Source: Dehalococcoidia bacterium
GTDB lineage: Bacteria > Chloroflexota > Dehalococcoidia > Lucifugimonadales > Australimonadaceae
Assembly: GCA_034428375.1 (NCBI GenBank)
Contig: DAOUHT010000116.1
Location: 1-52,970 of the forward strand
DNA length: 52,970 nucleotides
Reading direction: 5' to 3'
Shown here in pieces: positions 31,098 through 52,970 of the stretch (positions within the stretch are counted from its first letter, which is position 1; each line of letters begins with the position of its first letter). The notes under the pieces were generated by a model. That model was not told the DNA's origin. It ran no database searches and saw nothing but the letters and a program-made list of their open reading frames with translations. The translations under genes were made by a program, and so were the position numbers.

Positions 31098-32327
31098 CTA
31101 CCGTCCTGCCGCGACAGTCCCCAGCCCCGCCAGCACCTCAGCGGTCGGGCGGACGGCGCACCACTCCGCGAGGGAAGAGAGGTCGGGCGAGTCGGGCGGG
31201 TACGTTGCGTCGGCGATGACGGTGATGTCGTAGCCGAGCGCGACGCCGTCGAGCGCGGTCGCCCACACGCACCCTGTCACGGCGCCGCCGGTCATCAGCA
31301 GGCGCTGCGCGTTCAGGTTTCGCAGGATGCGGTGCAGCGGGGTGTAGCCGAAACCGCTGCCACCCTTCTTCTCAACCACGTAGTCGTCCCGTTCCGGGGT
31401 CAACTCATCCACCATCTCCGCGCCCCATGTGCCATAGGCGCAGTGCGTCACTCCCGGCGGGAGCGTGCGCGCGCGCCGGTGCGTCCTGCTGTGGACGTCG
31501 TCCGAGTTGTCCTGACGTCGCACCACTCGAACGTAGATGACGGGCCAGCCCCGCTCGCGCACTGCCGCGCTTAGCTTCTGCGTGTTCTCTACGATGTTCA
31601 GCCGCTTCTCCTCCGGCATCGGGTCGCCCAGGCCGTAGAGGACGTGCGGGCGCTCCGCGTTCATGAAGTCGTTCTGCATGTCCACGAGCACCATCGCGTA
31701 GTCCGGGCCGGACCGCGCGGGCTCCGGCTCGGCAGAGGCAGCAACGAACACGTCCTCCAGCGAGACGACCTCCGCCTGCTTGCGCGGCGCGTGCAGTTCG
31801 GCGGCACTCGGTGGGTAAAGCGCGTCCTGGACTACGAACTGCTCGTAGCCCAGTCGTCCGCCCGTCCGCGCGGTCTCGGCGATCGAGTCCGTCACGCCGC
31901 CACCAACGACGATGCACTGGGTGATACCGAGATTCGTGAGCAGGCGGTCCAGGTGTGTGTTGTCGTAGGCGCTGTGCCCCTTCTTGATCACGGCGTAGTC
32001 GTCCGGTGCGGCATCCATGCCGTCCGCGAGCTCCGCGCCCCACGAGCCCTCGATGAAGAACGGGCCGACCTCGGCTTGGCGGCGCTGCAGCCAGAGCGGC
32101 GCGTAGGTGGTATCGGCGAAGTCAGGTCGCAGGCCCGTCTTCACCCATACGATAGGTCGTCCGGCGCCGCGCATGAAGTCGACGAGCCTTCCCCACACGT
32201 CCAGTAGGCGGGATACCTCGGCGGCGGGGGGCGCCTGCCCAGCGCGTCCCAGCGCGCCGTCCGGGTGGAGCGCGTCCCGTTGAACGTCGACCAGCAACAG
32301 CGCAGCGTGGTCCAGAACGAGTTGCAT
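31098..32327 (-). CDS. Double-domain isochorismatase/cysteine hydrolase
   Basis: Two repeats of (V)D(V/M)Q...WGAE...KK...LxRxLxN...GGxVTx(S/C); ATG 32327 is 8 nt after AGGAGG. Confidence 0.88.
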   Translation of the reverse strand: MQLVLDHAALLLVDVQRDALHPDGALGRAGQAPPAAEVSRLLDVWGRLVDFMRGAGRPIVWVKTGLRPDFADTTYAPLWLQRRQAEVGPFFIEGSWGAELADGMDAAPDDYAVIKKGHSAYDNTHLDRLLTNLGITQCIVVGGGVTDSIAETARTGGRLGYEQFVVQDALYPPSAAELHAPRKQAEVVSLEDVFVAASAEPEPARSGPDYAMVLVDMQNDFMNAERPHVLYGLGDPMPEEKRLNIVENTQKLSAAVRERGWPVIYVRVVRRQDNSDDVHSRTHRRARTLPPGVTHCAYGTWGAEMVDELTPERDDYVVEKKGGSGFGYTPLHRILRNLNAQRLLMTGGAVTGCVWATALDGVALGYDITVIADATYPPDSPDLSSLAEWCAVRPTAEVLAGLGTVAAGR

Positions 32328-32363
32328 CTCCCGCACCTCCTCGCGCCTCAGGATAAGGGGGCC

Positions 32364-32392
32364 ATCATAGGCGCGCTATCGCCGGCACTCAA
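32364..32392 (-). promoter_or_regulatory. sigma70 promoter of the isochorismatase gene
   Basis: Minus strand TTGAGT (32392-32387), 17 nt, TATGAT (32369-32364). Confidence 0.55.
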
Positions 32393-32478
32393 GCGCGAGG
32401 CACCTCAATGCCGCCACAACTTGCAGGCCCCCCATGGCGGGCATATAGTCAGCGCCGTAACACCAAGGGAGGCTTCTC

Positions 32479-33252
32479 ATGCATAGAGTAACTATCATGA
32501 AGTTGACCGTCGCGGACGAGAATGCCGAGCGGTTCGAAGAAGCCTGCCGCGAGCAGACGGCGCGAGTGAAGGAGAACGAGCCGGGAACAGCCCTGTGCAC
32601 CTTCATCCGCAGGAACAAGCAGGCCTCGACCATCCTGCCGATGCCGCCAAACGGACACACCGACTACATCCACCTGCAGGCATACACCAGCCAGGAGGCT
32701 GACGACCACCACCGTGAGCTCGAGCAAGAGTGGTGGGGGCCGGCGTTCCGCAGCCTGCTGGCCGCGCCGTTCACCGGCGAACGCTACATGACGCCGGACA
32801 TCACCGCCGGCATCACCCGCGACTTCGACTGGGGCCCGCATCAGAGGAGCTTCGTCTTCCATCGCTTCCAGATCAAGGAAGGCCAGGACGAAGAGTTCGA
32901 GGAACAGGCGTCGCACCAACTCGGCGTTGTGACGAAGGGTGAACCCGGCACCAAGCTCTACACCTTCTGCAAGCGCCCGGCGGAGGGTTCCGCATTCCTG
33001 CCTGGCTCCAACCCGGAGAGGACCGAGTACCTGCACATGAGCATCTATGAGGATGAGGACGCCTGGCAGCAACACCGGCGCCTCGAACATCGCGACGACG
33101 GCAAGTGGTGCTGGGGCCCGACCTACCGCCAGTACATCGCGGTGCCCTTGGTCAACGAGCAGTTCCGGAGTGAGCAGATCGTGTGCGGTCTGAGCCGGGA
33201 CGCACAGTGGGGAACCGTGTACGGAGACGTGGACATCGCCCCGTTCGGTTAG
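32479..33252 (+). CDS. Internally duplicated ABM-like (dimeric alpha+beta barrel) protein
   Basis: Two roughly 120-aa repeats: FEE..EQ..V..EPGT..TF..R...Y.H..Y..E.A..HR.LE...WGP..R...P...E...G..RD..WG; SD GGAGG. Confidence 0.7.
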   Translation: MHRVTIMKLTVADENAERFEEACREQTARVKENEPGTALCTFIRRNKQASTILPMPPNGHTDYIHLQAYTSQEADDHHRELEQEWWGPAFRSLLAAPFTGERYMTPDITAGITRDFDWGPHQRSFVFHRFQIKEGQDEEFEEQASHQLGVVTKGEPGTKLYTFCKRPAEGSAFLPGSNPERTEYLHMSIYEDEDAWQQHRRLEHRDDGKWCWGPTYRQYIAVPLVNEQFRSEQIVCGLSRDAQWGTVYGDVDIAPFG

Positions 33253-33441
33253 GCCAACCGGCAGCATGGCGCATCAGAAGGGTTGGTTGCGCCGGAGCGT
33301 TGGTGGAGTCGAGTCGGTTCGTTGCCTGCGATGGGATATGAGTAGACCTCTCGCCAGCTCAGGGGTGCTGAGCAGACAGTGCGGGGCTAGTCTTACGGCA
33401 GCCGGCACGAGCCGTATTCGCACAGGACAAGGGAGTCGCCT

Positions 33442-51187: not shown

Positions 51188-52414
51188 ATGCAGCGAAGTG
51201 AGGACCGCATACTGACCACCCATGTCGGGAGCCTGATCCGCACGCCCGAGATAATCCAGGCCATGGAAGCGTTAGACCAGGGCAGGCCATACGACACGAA
51301 GACATATCACGACGACCTGCGCCAGGGAGTAGCAGACGTGGTGCGGAGGCAGGCGGAGGCGGGGATCGACGTCGTGAGCGACGGCGAGTACGGCAAGCGC
51401 GGATGGAGCCAGTACGTCATTGAACGTTTCACCGGGCTGGAGCCGGAACAACGCGAAGAGTCACGTACGTTCATGGACCGCGGCCCACGGGAGGGTCGGT
51501 TCGTGGACTTCTGGAGCCGCTATCGCAAGCTTGAAACGGTGGTCTGGCTGCCGGAGCCTGCCTTCGGCAACGCCGTCAAGGCAGGCAAGCTCGGTTCAGG
51601 CCTCACGCAGACGGCCTGGGTGTGCACGGGCCCAGTGACGTATCGCGGTCACGATGCGGTCGCGAGAGATATCCAGAACTTCAAGGCGGCGCTGGGGACA
51701 GTGGAGGTCGTGGAGGCGTTCATGCCCGTCGTGGCGCCATGCAGCGCCGAGGTTACGCGCGAGAACCGTTACTACGACTCCGAGGAGGACTACCTCTCCG
51801 CTGTCGCTGCAGCCCTCAGCGAAGAGTACCACACGATCGTTGACGCGGGCCTGCTGCTCCAGGTAGACGACGCGCACTTGCCGATGCGGTTCAGTGCGAT
51901 GGCTGCCCAGGGGCGGTCCGACGAATGGGAGCGTTGGGCCGCGCTACGGGTCGACGCGCTCAACGCGGCGCTGGAGGGCATACCCCCAGACCTGGTCCGC
52001 TACCACATCTGCTGGGGCAGCCAAAATGCACCGCACCTGGATGACGCTCCCCTCCGAGCTGTCATGGACCAGGTGTTGCGGGTCAATGCGGATGCCTTCG
52101 TCATCGAATCGGCGAACCCGCGCCACGAGCACGAGTGGGCGGTCTGGAAGGACGTGCAACTCCCCCGGGGCAAGACGTTGGTCGCGGGAGTTGTGAGCCA
52201 TGCAACCAACATCGTCGAGCATCCGGAACTCATCGCTTTGAGGATCAAGAACTTCGCTCACGCACTCGGCAGGGAGAACGTCATGGCGGGGACCGACTGC
52301 GGCTTCTCGCAGAACTGGAACCTCATCAGGGTGCACCCCTCCGTGCAGTGGGCCAAGCTGGAGTCGCTGGCTCAGGGGGCGGAGCTTGCGTCCAAAGAAC
52401 TGTGGGGCAGATAG
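51188..52414 (+). CDS. Cobalamin-independent methionine synthase II-like (MetE C-terminal domain only) Zn-thiol alkyltransferase
   Basis: ILTTHVGSL, DVVSDGE, LLQVDD, HICWG (HxC), ANPRH, GTDCGF Zn ligands; single barrel with no MetE N-terminal half. Confidence 0.85.
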   Translation: MQRSEDRILTTHVGSLIRTPEIIQAMEALDQGRPYDTKTYHDDLRQGVADVVRRQAEAGIDVVSDGEYGKRGWSQYVIERFTGLEPEQREESRTFMDRGPREGRFVDFWSRYRKLETVVWLPEPAFGNAVKAGKLGSGLTQTAWVCTGPVTYRGHDAVARDIQNFKAALGTVEVVEAFMPVVAPCSAEVTRENRYYDSEEDYLSAVAAALSEEYHTIVDAGLLLQVDDAHLPMRFSAMAAQGRSDEWERWAALRVDALNAALEGIPPDLVRYHICWGSQNAPHLDDAPLRAVMDQVLRVNADAFVIESANPRHEHEWAVWKDVQLPRGKTLVAGVVSHATNIVEHPELIALRIKNFAHALGRENVMAGTDCGFSQNWNLIRVHPSVQWAKLESLAQGAELASKELWGR

Positions 52415-52447
52415 TGGGTTAGCACCATCCCGACGTGGCCCGCCGTT

Positions 52448-52470
52448 TGCGCTATGATGGGCTTGGTTGG
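52448..52470 (+). promoter_or_regulatory. -10 region upstream of Rieske alpha 3, resembling that of alpha 1
   Basis: TGCGCTATGATGG-N5-GTTGG against TGCGTTATGATGG-N5-GTTGG at 48324. Confidence 0.4.
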
Positions 52471-52598
52471 TCTGGAAGGTAGCGGAGGTCCGATAGCGAC
52501 ATTATTCCAAGCCGCGTGACACACGGCCACGCCTGATCAGCCGTATCGAGGTACGAGAGCGGGACGGTCCTCTGAAGCACCTAAGCGGAGGGGCAGCG

Positions 52599-52970
52599 AT
52601 GACAACGACTGACCTGGACCAGACGGGAGAATCCGCCGTACTGGTGAATGTGGAGCAAGGACTCGTCAGCAGGAAGATCTTCTCCGACCCTGACGTCTAC
52701 CTGCTGGAGTTGGAGCAGATCTTCGCCCGCTGCTGGCTCTACCTCGGCCACGAGTCCCAACTCCCCAACCCCGGCGACTATATCAACGTGTTCATGGGCG
52801 AGGAGCCTGTGCTCGTCGTCCGCAACCGCCAGGGCAAGCTCAACGCCTTCATCAACAGCTGCCGCCACCGCGGCAATCGCGTCTGCAGGGCGGACGCCGG
52901 CAACACAGCCTCTTTCCTGTGCACGTACCACGGCTGGACGTACGACATTGACGGGAAGCTGATCGGCGTG
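52599..52970 (+). CDS. Rieske oxygenase alpha subunit 3 (partial; runs off the window; absent from the ORF track)
   Basis: SD [13 protein letters not shown]...[16 protein letters not shown]...CRHRGNRVC...[17 protein letters not shown] open to the end of the window. Confidence 0.93.
   Translation, partial: [124 protein letters not shown]

Follow-up and report, generated by a model that had tools for sequence, protein, structure and literature searches.

An accessory island of Rieske oxygenase, LigB-family and hydrolase genes, probably for aromatic-ring oxidation, in a sponge-associated SAR202-type bacterium

Introduction

Bacteria of the SAR202 clade are abundant in the ocean and in sponges, and are thought to oxidise recalcitrant dissolved organic matter by means of expanded oxygenase families. 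We know of no enzyme from these oxygenase expansions with a known substrate. A stretch of 52,970 nucleotides from a Dehalococcoidia bacterium (contig DAOUHT010000116.1; the whole analysed stretch is referred to as the window) carries, in its last two-fifths, a cluster of genes for Rieske oxygenase alpha subunits, LigB-family proteins, hydrolases and a flavin-dependent hydroxylase. The cluster is compared here with the closest described systems and is read, probably though far from certainly, as an accessory upper-pathway island for the aerobic oxidation and extradiol cleavage of varied aromatic compounds. The island would be Hca/Mhp- or Bph-like, would lie outside any characterised pathway, and would depend on electron donors and lower-pathway enzymes encoded elsewhere.

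The expansion of oxygenases in this lineage has been described in three papers, which are cited here and below from excerpts. Saw et al. (2020) reported an expansion of COG4638 in SAR202 group VII and proposed that the paralogs diversify the substrate range (PMC6946804). Colatriano et al. (2018) found dozens of ring-cleaving and ring-modifying enzymes in a metagenome-assembled genome (MAG) of SAR202-VII, with no complete reference pathway; hydrolases and dehydrogenases were clustered with the oxygenases, and novel pathway variants were suggested (PMC6123686). Bayer et al. (2018) described incomplete phenylpropionate/cinnamate-type genes in sponge SAR202, and speculated about sponge aromatic metabolites (PMC6306507). 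The lineage and the phenomenon, that is, the clustering of COG4638 alpha subunits, ring-cleaving dioxygenases and metal-dependent hydrolases, are the same as in the window; however, the excerpted papers (PMC6946804, PMC6123686, PMC6306507) count families genome-wide and, in these excerpts, do not describe the island, its insertion site, the ratio of alpha to beta subunits, gene conversion or the LigB motif. The expansion is already known, and the idea of an aromatic pathway is essentially the hypothesis published for the clade. The suggestion of the first-pass annotation of the window that the pathway may be undescribed goes too far: this island has not been characterised in detail, but the phenomenon, including the missing complete reference pathway, was published for SAR202 group VII in the same three papers, as excerpted.

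The HcaEFCBD and MhpABCDFE proteins of Escherichia coli represent the same succession of families as the island: an alpha/beta-type Rieske dioxygenase, a short-chain dehydrogenase (SDR), a LigB-type extradiol dioxygenase and an alpha/beta C–C hydrolase. HcaE is the best match of the island alpha subunits among both solved structures and NCBIfam models. The identities of the island proteins to those of E. coli are 37–39% for HcaE, 37% for the beta subunit HcaF, 26–30% for MhpB, 22–25% for MhpC and 26% for HcaB. However, the island is not collinear with the Hca/Mhp genes, lacks homologs of HcaC, HcaD, MhpA, MhpD, MhpE, MhpF and the regulators, and has several alpha subunits per beta subunit as well as HpaB, ABM, Amidohydro_2, MetE-like and ABC-transporter genes. 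The Bph pathway has the same core logic of a Rieske dioxygenase, an SDR, extradiol cleavage and hydrolases. The first-pass annotation depends on the cluster not being collinear with a characterised pathway, and this agrees with an order and complement of genes that differ from E. coli Hca/Mhp and with the absence of any protein that reaches an NCBIfam equivalog cut-off. Its statement that the gene combination matches no known pathway was too strong, since the dioxygenase/dehydrogenase/extradiol/hydrolase core is standard and a related, uncharacterised operon is present on plasmid pCAR3.

Plasmid pCAR3 of Novosphingobium sp. KA1 (NC_008308) provides the best plasmid match of the LigB-family protein G11 of the island. 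The order of the pCAR3 operon, at ~231–237 kb of NC_008308, is Rieske alpha, beta, alpha/beta hydrolase, ferredoxin, LigB-like protein, SDR and ABM protein, and it is flanked by genes for a major facilitator superfamily (MFS) protein, a TonB receptor, an aldehyde dehydrogenase, a thiamine pyrophosphate (TPP) enzyme and a regulator. The LigB-like protein of pCAR3, named 'hypothetical protein' in RefSeq, contains the motif GDDQxExF and is 39% identical to G11. Sphingomonas vulcanisoli CECT 8804 (L052; L-numbers are labels of compared loci in other genomes) has three LigB-family genes with the same Gln-type motif (36–51% identical, the closest to G11 at 50–51%) together with two Rieske alphas (43–45% identical), two hydrolases, an SDR and an MFS gene, and a 50%-identical homolog is present in Phenylobacterium immobile. 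The sphingomonad loci differ from the island in their ferredoxin (pCAR3), TonB receptors, TPP enzyme, aldehyde dehydrogenase and TetR/MarR/LysR regulators, in having one or two alphas, and in a single-domain ABM protein. Since the set of families recurs across phyla, it can be argued that the Rieske/SDR/LigB/hydrolase/ABM core, at the least, functions as a unit. LigAB/DesB, LigJ and LigY of Sphingobium SYK-6 are also related: LigJ and LigY are the nearest solved structures to the amidohydrolase G4, and LigB and DesB to the second LigB-family protein, G14. However, the E-values are only 1e-9 to 1e-37, the island lacks LigA, LigC, LigI, LigK and the tetrahydrofolate-dependent demethylase, and its LigB-family proteins have Gln in place of an iron-ligand His.

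Extent and boundaries of the island

Genes were called by third-position GC content in the window, which has a G+C content of ~65%, and were checked against Pfam and NCBIfam; several gene starts were refined with public gene calls on identical contigs and with paralog alignments. The genes from position 31098 onwards are numbered in order:

G1: 31098–32336, minus strand, fused tandem isochorismatase-family hydrolase of 412 residues (PF00857 twice)
G2: 32479–33252, plus strand, tandem ABM (ferredoxin-like repeat) protein, first gene of the island (PF03992 twice)
G3: 33442–34218, plus strand, second tandem ABM protein, with two ABM domains by Pfam
G4: 34288–35436, plus strand, Amidohydro_2 enzyme (PF04909) similar to LigJ (hydratase) and LigY (C–C hydrolase)
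G5: 35477–37201, minus strand, HpaB-type flavin-dependent phenol hydroxylase, oxygenase component (N- and C-terminal domains HpaB_N, 1.2e-89, and HpaB, 1.4e-56)
G6: 37225–38160, plus strand, alpha/beta hydrolase (Abhydrolase_1), candidate meta-cleavage-product hydrolase, start from a public gene call
G7: 38214–39074, plus strand, second alpha/beta hydrolase, 38% identical to G6
G8: 39502–40743, plus strand, ABC ATPase with a TOBE_2 domain, PotA/FbpC-like
G9: 40822–41997, plus strand, lipoprotein solute-binding protein of the FbpA/MctA/PotD structural class (SBP_bac_8; lipobox LGAC)
G10: 42111–43835, plus strand, fused two-domain ABC permease (BPD_transp_1 twice), PhnU2-like under the cut-off
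G11: 43960–44928, plus strand, LigB-family (class III) extradiol dioxygenase-like protein of the GDDQxExF subfamily (PF02900)
G12: 44933–45667, plus strand, SDR (adh_short), candidate dihydrodiol dehydrogenase
G13: 45783–47234, plus strand, MFS transporter (MFS_1)
G14: 47293–48252, plus strand, second LigB-family protein, 28% identical to G11 and with the same GDDQxExF motif
G15: 48394–49713, plus strand, Rieske alpha of the HcaE/BphA type, with Rieske and Ring_hydroxyl_A Pfam domains
G16: 49731–51056, plus strand, Rieske alpha paralog, 76% identical to G15
G17: 51188–52414 (approximate), plus strand, MetE-like (Meth_synt_2) zinc-site protein, start inferred from a paralog
G18: 52599–52970, plus strand, third Rieske alpha, cut by the end of the window, with a full-length ortholog in L092

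Every family listed in the first-pass annotation is confirmed by Pfam; the MetE-like G17 had been overlooked. According to Pfam and NCBIfam scans, positions 1–31041 hold housekeeping genes only, and the content switches completely from 31098. The clustering of oxygenase and hydrolase genes is real, because the first 31 kb contain only housekeeping genes.

Comparison of gene orders indicates that the genes from G2 onwards form an accessory chromosomal island of ~30 kb between G1 and secD, of which the window appears to show about two-thirds. The unit begins near 32340, extends ~10 kb past the window end at 52970, and is collinear in 3 of ~24 related species. The block formed by PurO, a QRPTase-like gene, GT2, an unnamed open reading frame (ORF), purF and G1 is syntenic, at 79–97% protein identity, in ~17 of the 24 closest species representatives. 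Only in L004 and L020 is G1 followed by G2 to G9; the order of G4 to G18 is preserved, at 82–98% protein identity, in three species (L036, L037 and L038). Some 12 further relatives have a Peripla_BP_6 binding-protein gene beside G1, followed by secD. The same secD stands at the far end of the island in S32_261 (L095), where the island of ~28 kb sits between secD and G1 and replaces the Peripla_BP_6 gene; a remnant of the displaced gene was not found in the window. The GC content of the island is 0.59–0.65, compared with 0.64–0.69 upstream. No transcription factor, integrase, transposase, tRNA or Rfam element was detected in the window by Pfam/NCBIfam, Rfam and tRNA scans, in agreement with the first-pass observation that transcription factors, integrases and transposases are missing. 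An integrase, tRNA target or transposase is likewise absent from the island boundary in the window and from the far end in L095, and the evidence for a mobile island is limited to presence or absence at a fixed site and the slightly lower GC content.

Gene G1 has a history of its own. It adjoins purF, at 83–92% identity, in ~17 species representatives without G2–G18, where it follows the Peripla_BP_6 gene, and it is transcribed divergently from G2 at a distance of 142 bp. Because G1 stays by purF in ~17 species that do not have the island, it lies outside the cluster and is, as judged from this synteny, a conserved backbone gene inherited independently of the island. The first-pass annotation had treated 31098–52970 as one cluster and had proposed its synteny and co-inheritance as a check. 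An aromatic-ring oxidation and cleavage cluster in SAR202-type Dehalococcoidia is indeed present, and G4–G18 are collinear in three species; however, G1 is backbone that is inherited apart from G2–G18, and the unit runs past 52970. The two halves of G1 are 34% identical (BLASTP); the C-terminal half keeps the Asp-Lys-Cys triad, and in the N-terminal half Ser takes the place of the Cys. RutB, the biuret hydrolase BiuH and NicF share the fold and the triad with the C-terminal domain of G1. They differ from G1 in its fused tandem, Ser for Cys in the first domain, island-independent inheritance and scores far under the cut-offs (~93 bits against the RutB and BiuH models of NCBIfam, with cut-offs of 370–378).

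The continuation of the island is visible in its closest relative, L092, in which G17 is followed by:

full-length ortholog of G18
ORF of 272 codons without a Pfam match
third tandem ABM gene
one Ring_hydroxyl_B beta subunit
two more Rieske alphas
MFS gene
second MetE-like gene
another Amidohydro_2 gene

In L095, the next genes are an SDR gene and then secD. The number and order of Rieske genes vary: L036 and L038 carry an extra alpha, and L037 is rearranged.

In RHO1_bin_8 (L024), nothing but a G6-like hydrolase (85% identity) and an SDR lies between G1 and secD, and G4–G18 are on a separate 88-kb contig (L038/L093); this split reflects a rearrangement, a strain mixture or a binning artefact. 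In the MAG APA_bin_2 (L001, 7856–12302), ~4.4 kb separate G1 from purF, which are adjacent in all other relatives.

The relatives of the window in a search of species-representative genomes are uncultured Dehalococcoidia, many from sponge MAG sets. The flanks are 86–94% identical to MAG MPMJ01 (L013), a sponge symbiont of SAR202 group VII that has 62 copies of ring-hydroxylating dioxygenase according to the excerpt of Saw et al. (PMC6946804). An identical copy of G11 is found on a Joint Genome Institute (JGI) metagenome contig labelled "PetF", which would denote a sponge sample. The contigs recovered with G11 are no longer than 13.5 kb and stop within the cluster. The host is a sponge-associated, group VII-like SAR202 bacterium of the Dehalococcoidia.

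Rieske alpha subunits with a shared beta subunit

The visible part of G18 is 91% identical to G15 and 86% to G16 (BLASTP). Over their full length, the alpha subunits match HcaE (8k0a, 5.6e-91) and the alpha subunits of biphenyl, benzene and naphthalene dioxygenases. Against the HcaE equivalog model NF042946 of NCBIfam they score 338–345 bits, with a cut-off of 830. The Rieske [2Fe-2S] motif CxH-x17-CxxH is intact in G15, G16 and G18, and the mononuclear-iron motifs DNAIGDNYHG-ITH and EQDDGENW align with the residues of HcaE in all six paralogs.

The window has no Ring_hydroxyl_B gene according to Pfam. The beta subunit is encoded beyond the window end, and a single one is present for six alphas in L092 and for four alphas in L095. 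An additional alpha gene stands between G15 and G16 in L092 and L093. Homologs of HcaC, HcaD and the ferredoxin of pCAR3 were found neither in the window nor in eight orthologous loci, and the electron-transfer partners of the Rieske proteins may be encoded elsewhere in the genome.

Divergence among the six paralogs is distributed unevenly along the gene. Their Rieske domains are 90–94% identical, compared with 29–52% for residues 219–273, which follow directly after the iron motif. Fourfold-degenerate sites of G15 and G16 match in 81% of cases in codons 25–120, and in 43% in codons 201–439, where 34% is expected at random. Among four genomes, the catalytic halves group by orthology, with a nucleotide identity of 84–94% between orthologs and 62–73% between paralogs; in these halves, the paralogs are close to saturation. 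In the Rieske tract, by contrast, paralogs from one genome are 90–97% identical in nucleotides, which equals or exceeds the 88–95% between orthologs from different genomes. The exception in the Rieske tract is the paralog designated F (79–85%), which takes no part in the homogenisation. Because the Rieske halves homogenise within genomes while the catalytic halves group by orthology, the pattern is typical of gene conversion that has repeatedly affected the 5′ halves of the alpha genes, on top of old, diverged catalytic halves. Such conversion would fit the need for a common partner interface while specificity diversifies.

It is possible, albeit doubtful, that up to six interchangeable alphas, one shared beta subunit and off-island electron donors constitute a combinatorial oxygenase, in which gene conversion keeps the Rieske and partner-binding halves nearly identical, the substrate-entrance loops diverge freely, and the rings are then opened by a large, uncharacterised LigB clade whose metal site is His-Gln-Glu or otherwise non-canonical. 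Such an oxygenase would provide a built-in way to widen the substrate range.

LigB-family proteins and the short-chain dehydrogenase

The two LigB-family proteins score 76.8 and 106.4 bits against PF02900, which has a gathering threshold of 26.3. Alignments with MhpB, LigB and DesB show that the equivalents of LigB His12, His127, His195 and Glu242 are kept in G11 and G14. The alignment with MhpB shows no variation at the catalytic His residues (LigB His127/His195; MhpB His115/His179), which are also aligned in the match to LigB. By contrast, the second iron ligand (LigB His61, DesB His59, MhpB His53) is Gln in both proteins and lies within GDDQxExF. This motif is present in 75 of 94 LigB-like matches of the compared loci and in 111 of 120 best G11 homolog clusters, and members of the clade occur in Actinobacteria, Terriglobia, sphingomonads and pCAR3; no curated name for the clade was found. 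Judged from the alignments, the clade with Gln for His could have a distinct metal centre. Both this replacement in the two LigB proteins and the conversion of the Rieske domains may be new features. LigB-like genes adjoin Amidohydro_2 genes in many relatives.

The SDR encoded by G12 is 26% identical to HcaB, and its NCBIfam matches are generic SDR models only.

Hydroxylase, hydrolases and ABM proteins

The amidohydrolase G4 matches LigJ (2gwg, 1e-37) and LigY (5vn5, 1e-32) among structures in the Protein Data Bank (PDB), compared with 4e-13 for ACMSD and 4e-5 for LigW. By these scores it falls in the LigJ/LigY branch rather than among the decarboxylases, and could be either a hydratase or a hydrolase.

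The homology of G5 begins near residue 51, and its true start is probably near 37050. G5 scores 392.6 bits against TIGR02309, just under the cut-off of 480.2, and matches HpaB of T. thermophilus (2yyg) at 4e-101. A flavin reductase domain was not detected in any Pfam scan of the window.

The alpha/beta hydrolases have GxSxG nucleophile and His-Trp motifs, which are GESMG and AHWPQ in G6 and GASSG and GHWPQ in G7. The two proteins score 68–93 bits against the models of HsaD (cut-off 400) and BphD (cut-off 462), and PcaD-type lactonases score equally. HsaD is the top NCBIfam match of G6, and a steroid 9,10-seco pathway was considered and rejected in view of the score of 93 bits against the cut-off of 400, the HcaE-type alphas and the HpaB-type G5.

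The tandem ABM proteins G2 and G3 do not match each other in BLASTP at 1e-3; their internal halves are 34% and 32% identical, respectively. The family of G2 is rare: a search of 1.84 billion proteins at E ≤ 1e-3 gave 24 representative clusters, and the PDB contains no relative by sequence. The AlphaFold2 model of G2 has a predicted local distance difference test (pLDDT) score of 82, and its best fold matches are the tandem-ABM 'putative monooxygenases' 3f44 and 3mcs and the anthrone-oxidase-like 5f9p. Structure comparison also shows a resemblance of G2-type ABM folds to PenE.

The first-pass annotation described the whole cluster as built from paralog pairs. This holds for the Rieske alphas (76–91% identity), the only recent paralogs; it does not extend to the hydrolases (38%), the LigB proteins (28%) and the ABM proteins, which lack a BLASTP match. 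The non-Rieske pairs are distant members of the same superfamilies, a common situation in aromatic-catabolic clusters.

Proposed reactions and alternative explanations

We infer the order of the reactions, the sharing of the beta subunit and of the electron donors, and the broad specificity from the observed family membership, catalytic motifs, synteny, island boundaries and paralog evolution. An upper-pathway island would encode the first part of one or several aerobic routes of aromatic catabolism. Its array of Rieske alpha subunits, of which three are visible in the window and six are present in L092, would dihydroxylate varied aromatic rings together with the single beta subunit, whose gene lies shortly past the window end, and a ferredoxin and reductase from elsewhere in the genome. 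The SDR would re-aromatise the dihydrodiols to catechols, and the HpaB-type enzyme would turn phenols directly into catechols with reduced flavin supplied from elsewhere. The two LigB-family enzymes would then open the rings by extradiol cleavage, and the two alpha/beta hydrolases and the LigJ/LigY-like amidohydrolase would act on the ring-fission products by hydrolysis or hydration. Phenolic or quinol intermediates are the probable substrates of the tandem ABM proteins, which would be cofactor-independent oxygenases or isomerases. Since the island lacks a lower pathway, the products would leave its chemistry after these steps. The broad specificity proposed in the first-pass annotation is consistent with the diversified Rieske alphas, which fit a broad substrate range; for the methoxylated aromatics that it also named, there is no specific pointer.

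Several observations weigh against this reading. Ferredoxin, ferredoxin reductase, flavin reductase, an MhpD-type hydratase, an aldolase and an acylating dehydrogenase were not found in the window or the eight orthologous loci (~60 kb). Because these functions are missing, the island encodes at most an upper pathway and no complete route can be drawn. None of the proteins reaches an NCBIfam equivalog cut-off, and the enzymes all score far below. The canonical second His iron ligand is missing in both LigB proteins, and ring cleavage by G11 and G14 is only assumed because this ligand is replaced. The similarity of G12 to dihydrodiol dehydrogenases is not specific. The genes fall into five or more transcription units, distributed over both strands, and relatives differ in gene content; the genes perhaps do not serve one substrate.

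The last of these points suits an explanation in which the locus is a set of independent partial modules, namely the hydroxylase/hydrolase genes (G2–G7), the transporter, and the LigB/SDR/Rieske array, each performing one or two oxidative steps on different aromatics of dissolved organic matter or of the host, with products excreted or finished elsewhere. This explanation is unlikely, yet it is the rival to be taken most seriously. The distribution over at least five transcription units on both strands, the absence of electron-transfer genes and of a lower pathway, and the different number and order of Rieske genes among relatives (the extra alpha in L036 and L038, the rearranged L037) are as expected from it, as is the presence in RHO1_bin_8 of only a G6-like hydrolase and an SDR by G1, with G4–G18 on another contig. 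The same genomes carry comparable LigB/SDR/Rieske/ABC sets at other places, such as L045, and partial oxidation has been proposed for SAR202 in the excerpted text of PMC6946804. However, G4 to G18 are collinear at 82–98% protein identity in three species, and the same combination of families forms one operon on pCAR3; the explanation also overlaps largely with that of an upper-pathway island.

Two further explanations concern other substrates or purposes, and both are improbable. Degradation of N-heterocycles, aromatic amides or amines by an isochorismatase-type amidase and the oxygenases, with a PotD/FbpA-class importer of a nitrogenous substrate, would make use of the intact C-terminal triad of G1, whose nearest named relatives are RutB and biuret hydrolase, its divergent arrangement with G2 at 142 bp, and the conserved acidic and Trp residues of G9. 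However, G1 stands by purF, after a Peripla_BP_6 gene, in ~17 island-free species and reaches only ~93 bits against the 370–378 required for RutB and BiuH; no molybdenum hydroxylase or other hallmark of N-heterocycle degradation was found in Pfam scans of the cluster, and the structural neighbours of G9 bind metal-citrate and ferric iron. The link to N-containing substrates drawn in the first-pass annotation rests on G1, which is present by purF in ~17 species without the cluster, and is not upheld. Slightly less probable still is the tailoring or detoxification and export of host or microbial aromatic natural products, such as sponge metabolites, rather than growth. The ABM folds do resemble anthrone oxidase and PenE, the MFS protein is weakly similar to DHA2 efflux pumps, the MetE-type protein is methyltransferase-like with an intact zinc site, and the organism is sponge-associated, with the handling of sponge aromatic metabolites by SAR202 speculated upon in the excerpted PMC6306507. 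However, Pfam detected no polyketide synthase, nonribosomal peptide synthetase, cyclase or other core biosynthetic enzyme in the window or the continuation loci, and ring-cleavage dioxygenases and C–C hydrolases are hallmarks of catabolism.

Read as an upper-pathway island, the locus offers a compact, bounded and co-inherited candidate set of six alphas, one beta, two LigB proteins, three hydrolases, an HpaB enzyme and ABM proteins. A related module is present in the cultured bacteria Novosphingobium sp. KA1 (pCAR3), Sphingomonas vulcanisoli and Phenylobacterium immobile, and the gene-conversion pattern would reveal how such paralog arrays evolve. The question of what the expanded SAR202 oxygenases do becomes more directly testable through the defined island, the conversion pattern, the cultured analogues and the Gln-type LigB clade.

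Transporters, MetE-like protein and intergenic gap

The AlphaFold2 model of the binding protein G9 has a pLDDT of 90, and its Foldseek matches are the metal-citrate binder MctA (7f6q, 8e-17) and FbpA/FutA, at 13–19% identity. Homologs of G9 carry the automatic name ferric-iron binding protein; in an alignment of 37 homologs, the Tyr pair that provides the iron ligands of FbpA is not invariant, and acidic and Trp residues are conserved. The importer belongs to the ferric/metal-citrate/polyamine class, and the evidence speaks neither for nor against iron uptake by it. The ABC import noted in the first-pass annotation is borne out by the ATPase, the binding protein and the fused permease; however, there is no evidence for an aromatic cargo. 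The MFS protein G13 weakly matches the DHA2/EmrB type, with 72 bits against an NCBIfam cut-off of 230.

An alignment of G17 with 1ypx shows that the zinc ligands His-x-Cys, Glu and Cys are retained. The family is widespread, with 287 relatives, and comparison of gene contexts found no link of the MetE-like homologs to oxygenase genes outside SAR202. Outside this clade, they are often paired and near ABC-transporter genes (L100, L119, L122, L130, L138–L140, L151, L153, L156 and L160). In Defluviicoccus MAGs from sponges, a MetE-like homolog adjoins an HpaB-like gene (L123–L125 and L128).

The longest intergenic gap of the cluster precedes the transporter genes:

39075–39501, plus strand, 427 bp, with TTGACA-17 nt-TATAGA at 39141 and a leader of ~330 nt before G8

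It is the only gap large enough for a gene, and has no Pfam or NCBIfam match. Positions 58–283 of the gap are 86% and 74% conserved in two relatives. A cis-regulatory RNA in the gap, as a substitute for regulators, was considered and dropped, given no Rfam match, a fold z-score of −0.2 and only two diverged homologs on which to base a covariation analysis. A scan for promoters and terminators gave counts no higher than in shuffled sequence.

Other features of the window

The part of the window upstream of G1 contains:

1–31041, housekeeping set: infC, rplT, moeA, pheT, glyA, rpsF, ssb, rpsR, hom, thrC and folE, together with glycosyltransferases, a CNNM transporter, a PurO-like IMP cyclohydrolase and purF

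Several ORFs of this part have unusual features. The ORF at 1443–2102 (minus strand) encodes 219 residues with a signal-peptide-like start and ~55 residues of collagen-type Gly-X-Y repeats, and is a eukaryote-like repeat protein in a sponge-associated bacterium. The MoeA homolog at 2682–4124 (minus strand) opens with a histidine-rich stretch of ~40 residues (HDHHHGHEHEHAHGH...), and the ribosomal protein S18-like ORF at 12899–13501 (plus strand) has a C-terminal tail of ~110 residues rich in Ala, Pro and Glu. The gene at 25958–26605 (plus strand) encodes a PurO-type (archaeal-style) IMP cyclohydrolase with 93–97% identity in relatives. Between GT2 and purF, an ORF of ~400 codons at 28436–29635 (minus strand), without a Pfam or NCBIfam match, is kept in place at 79–90% identity in ~17 related species.

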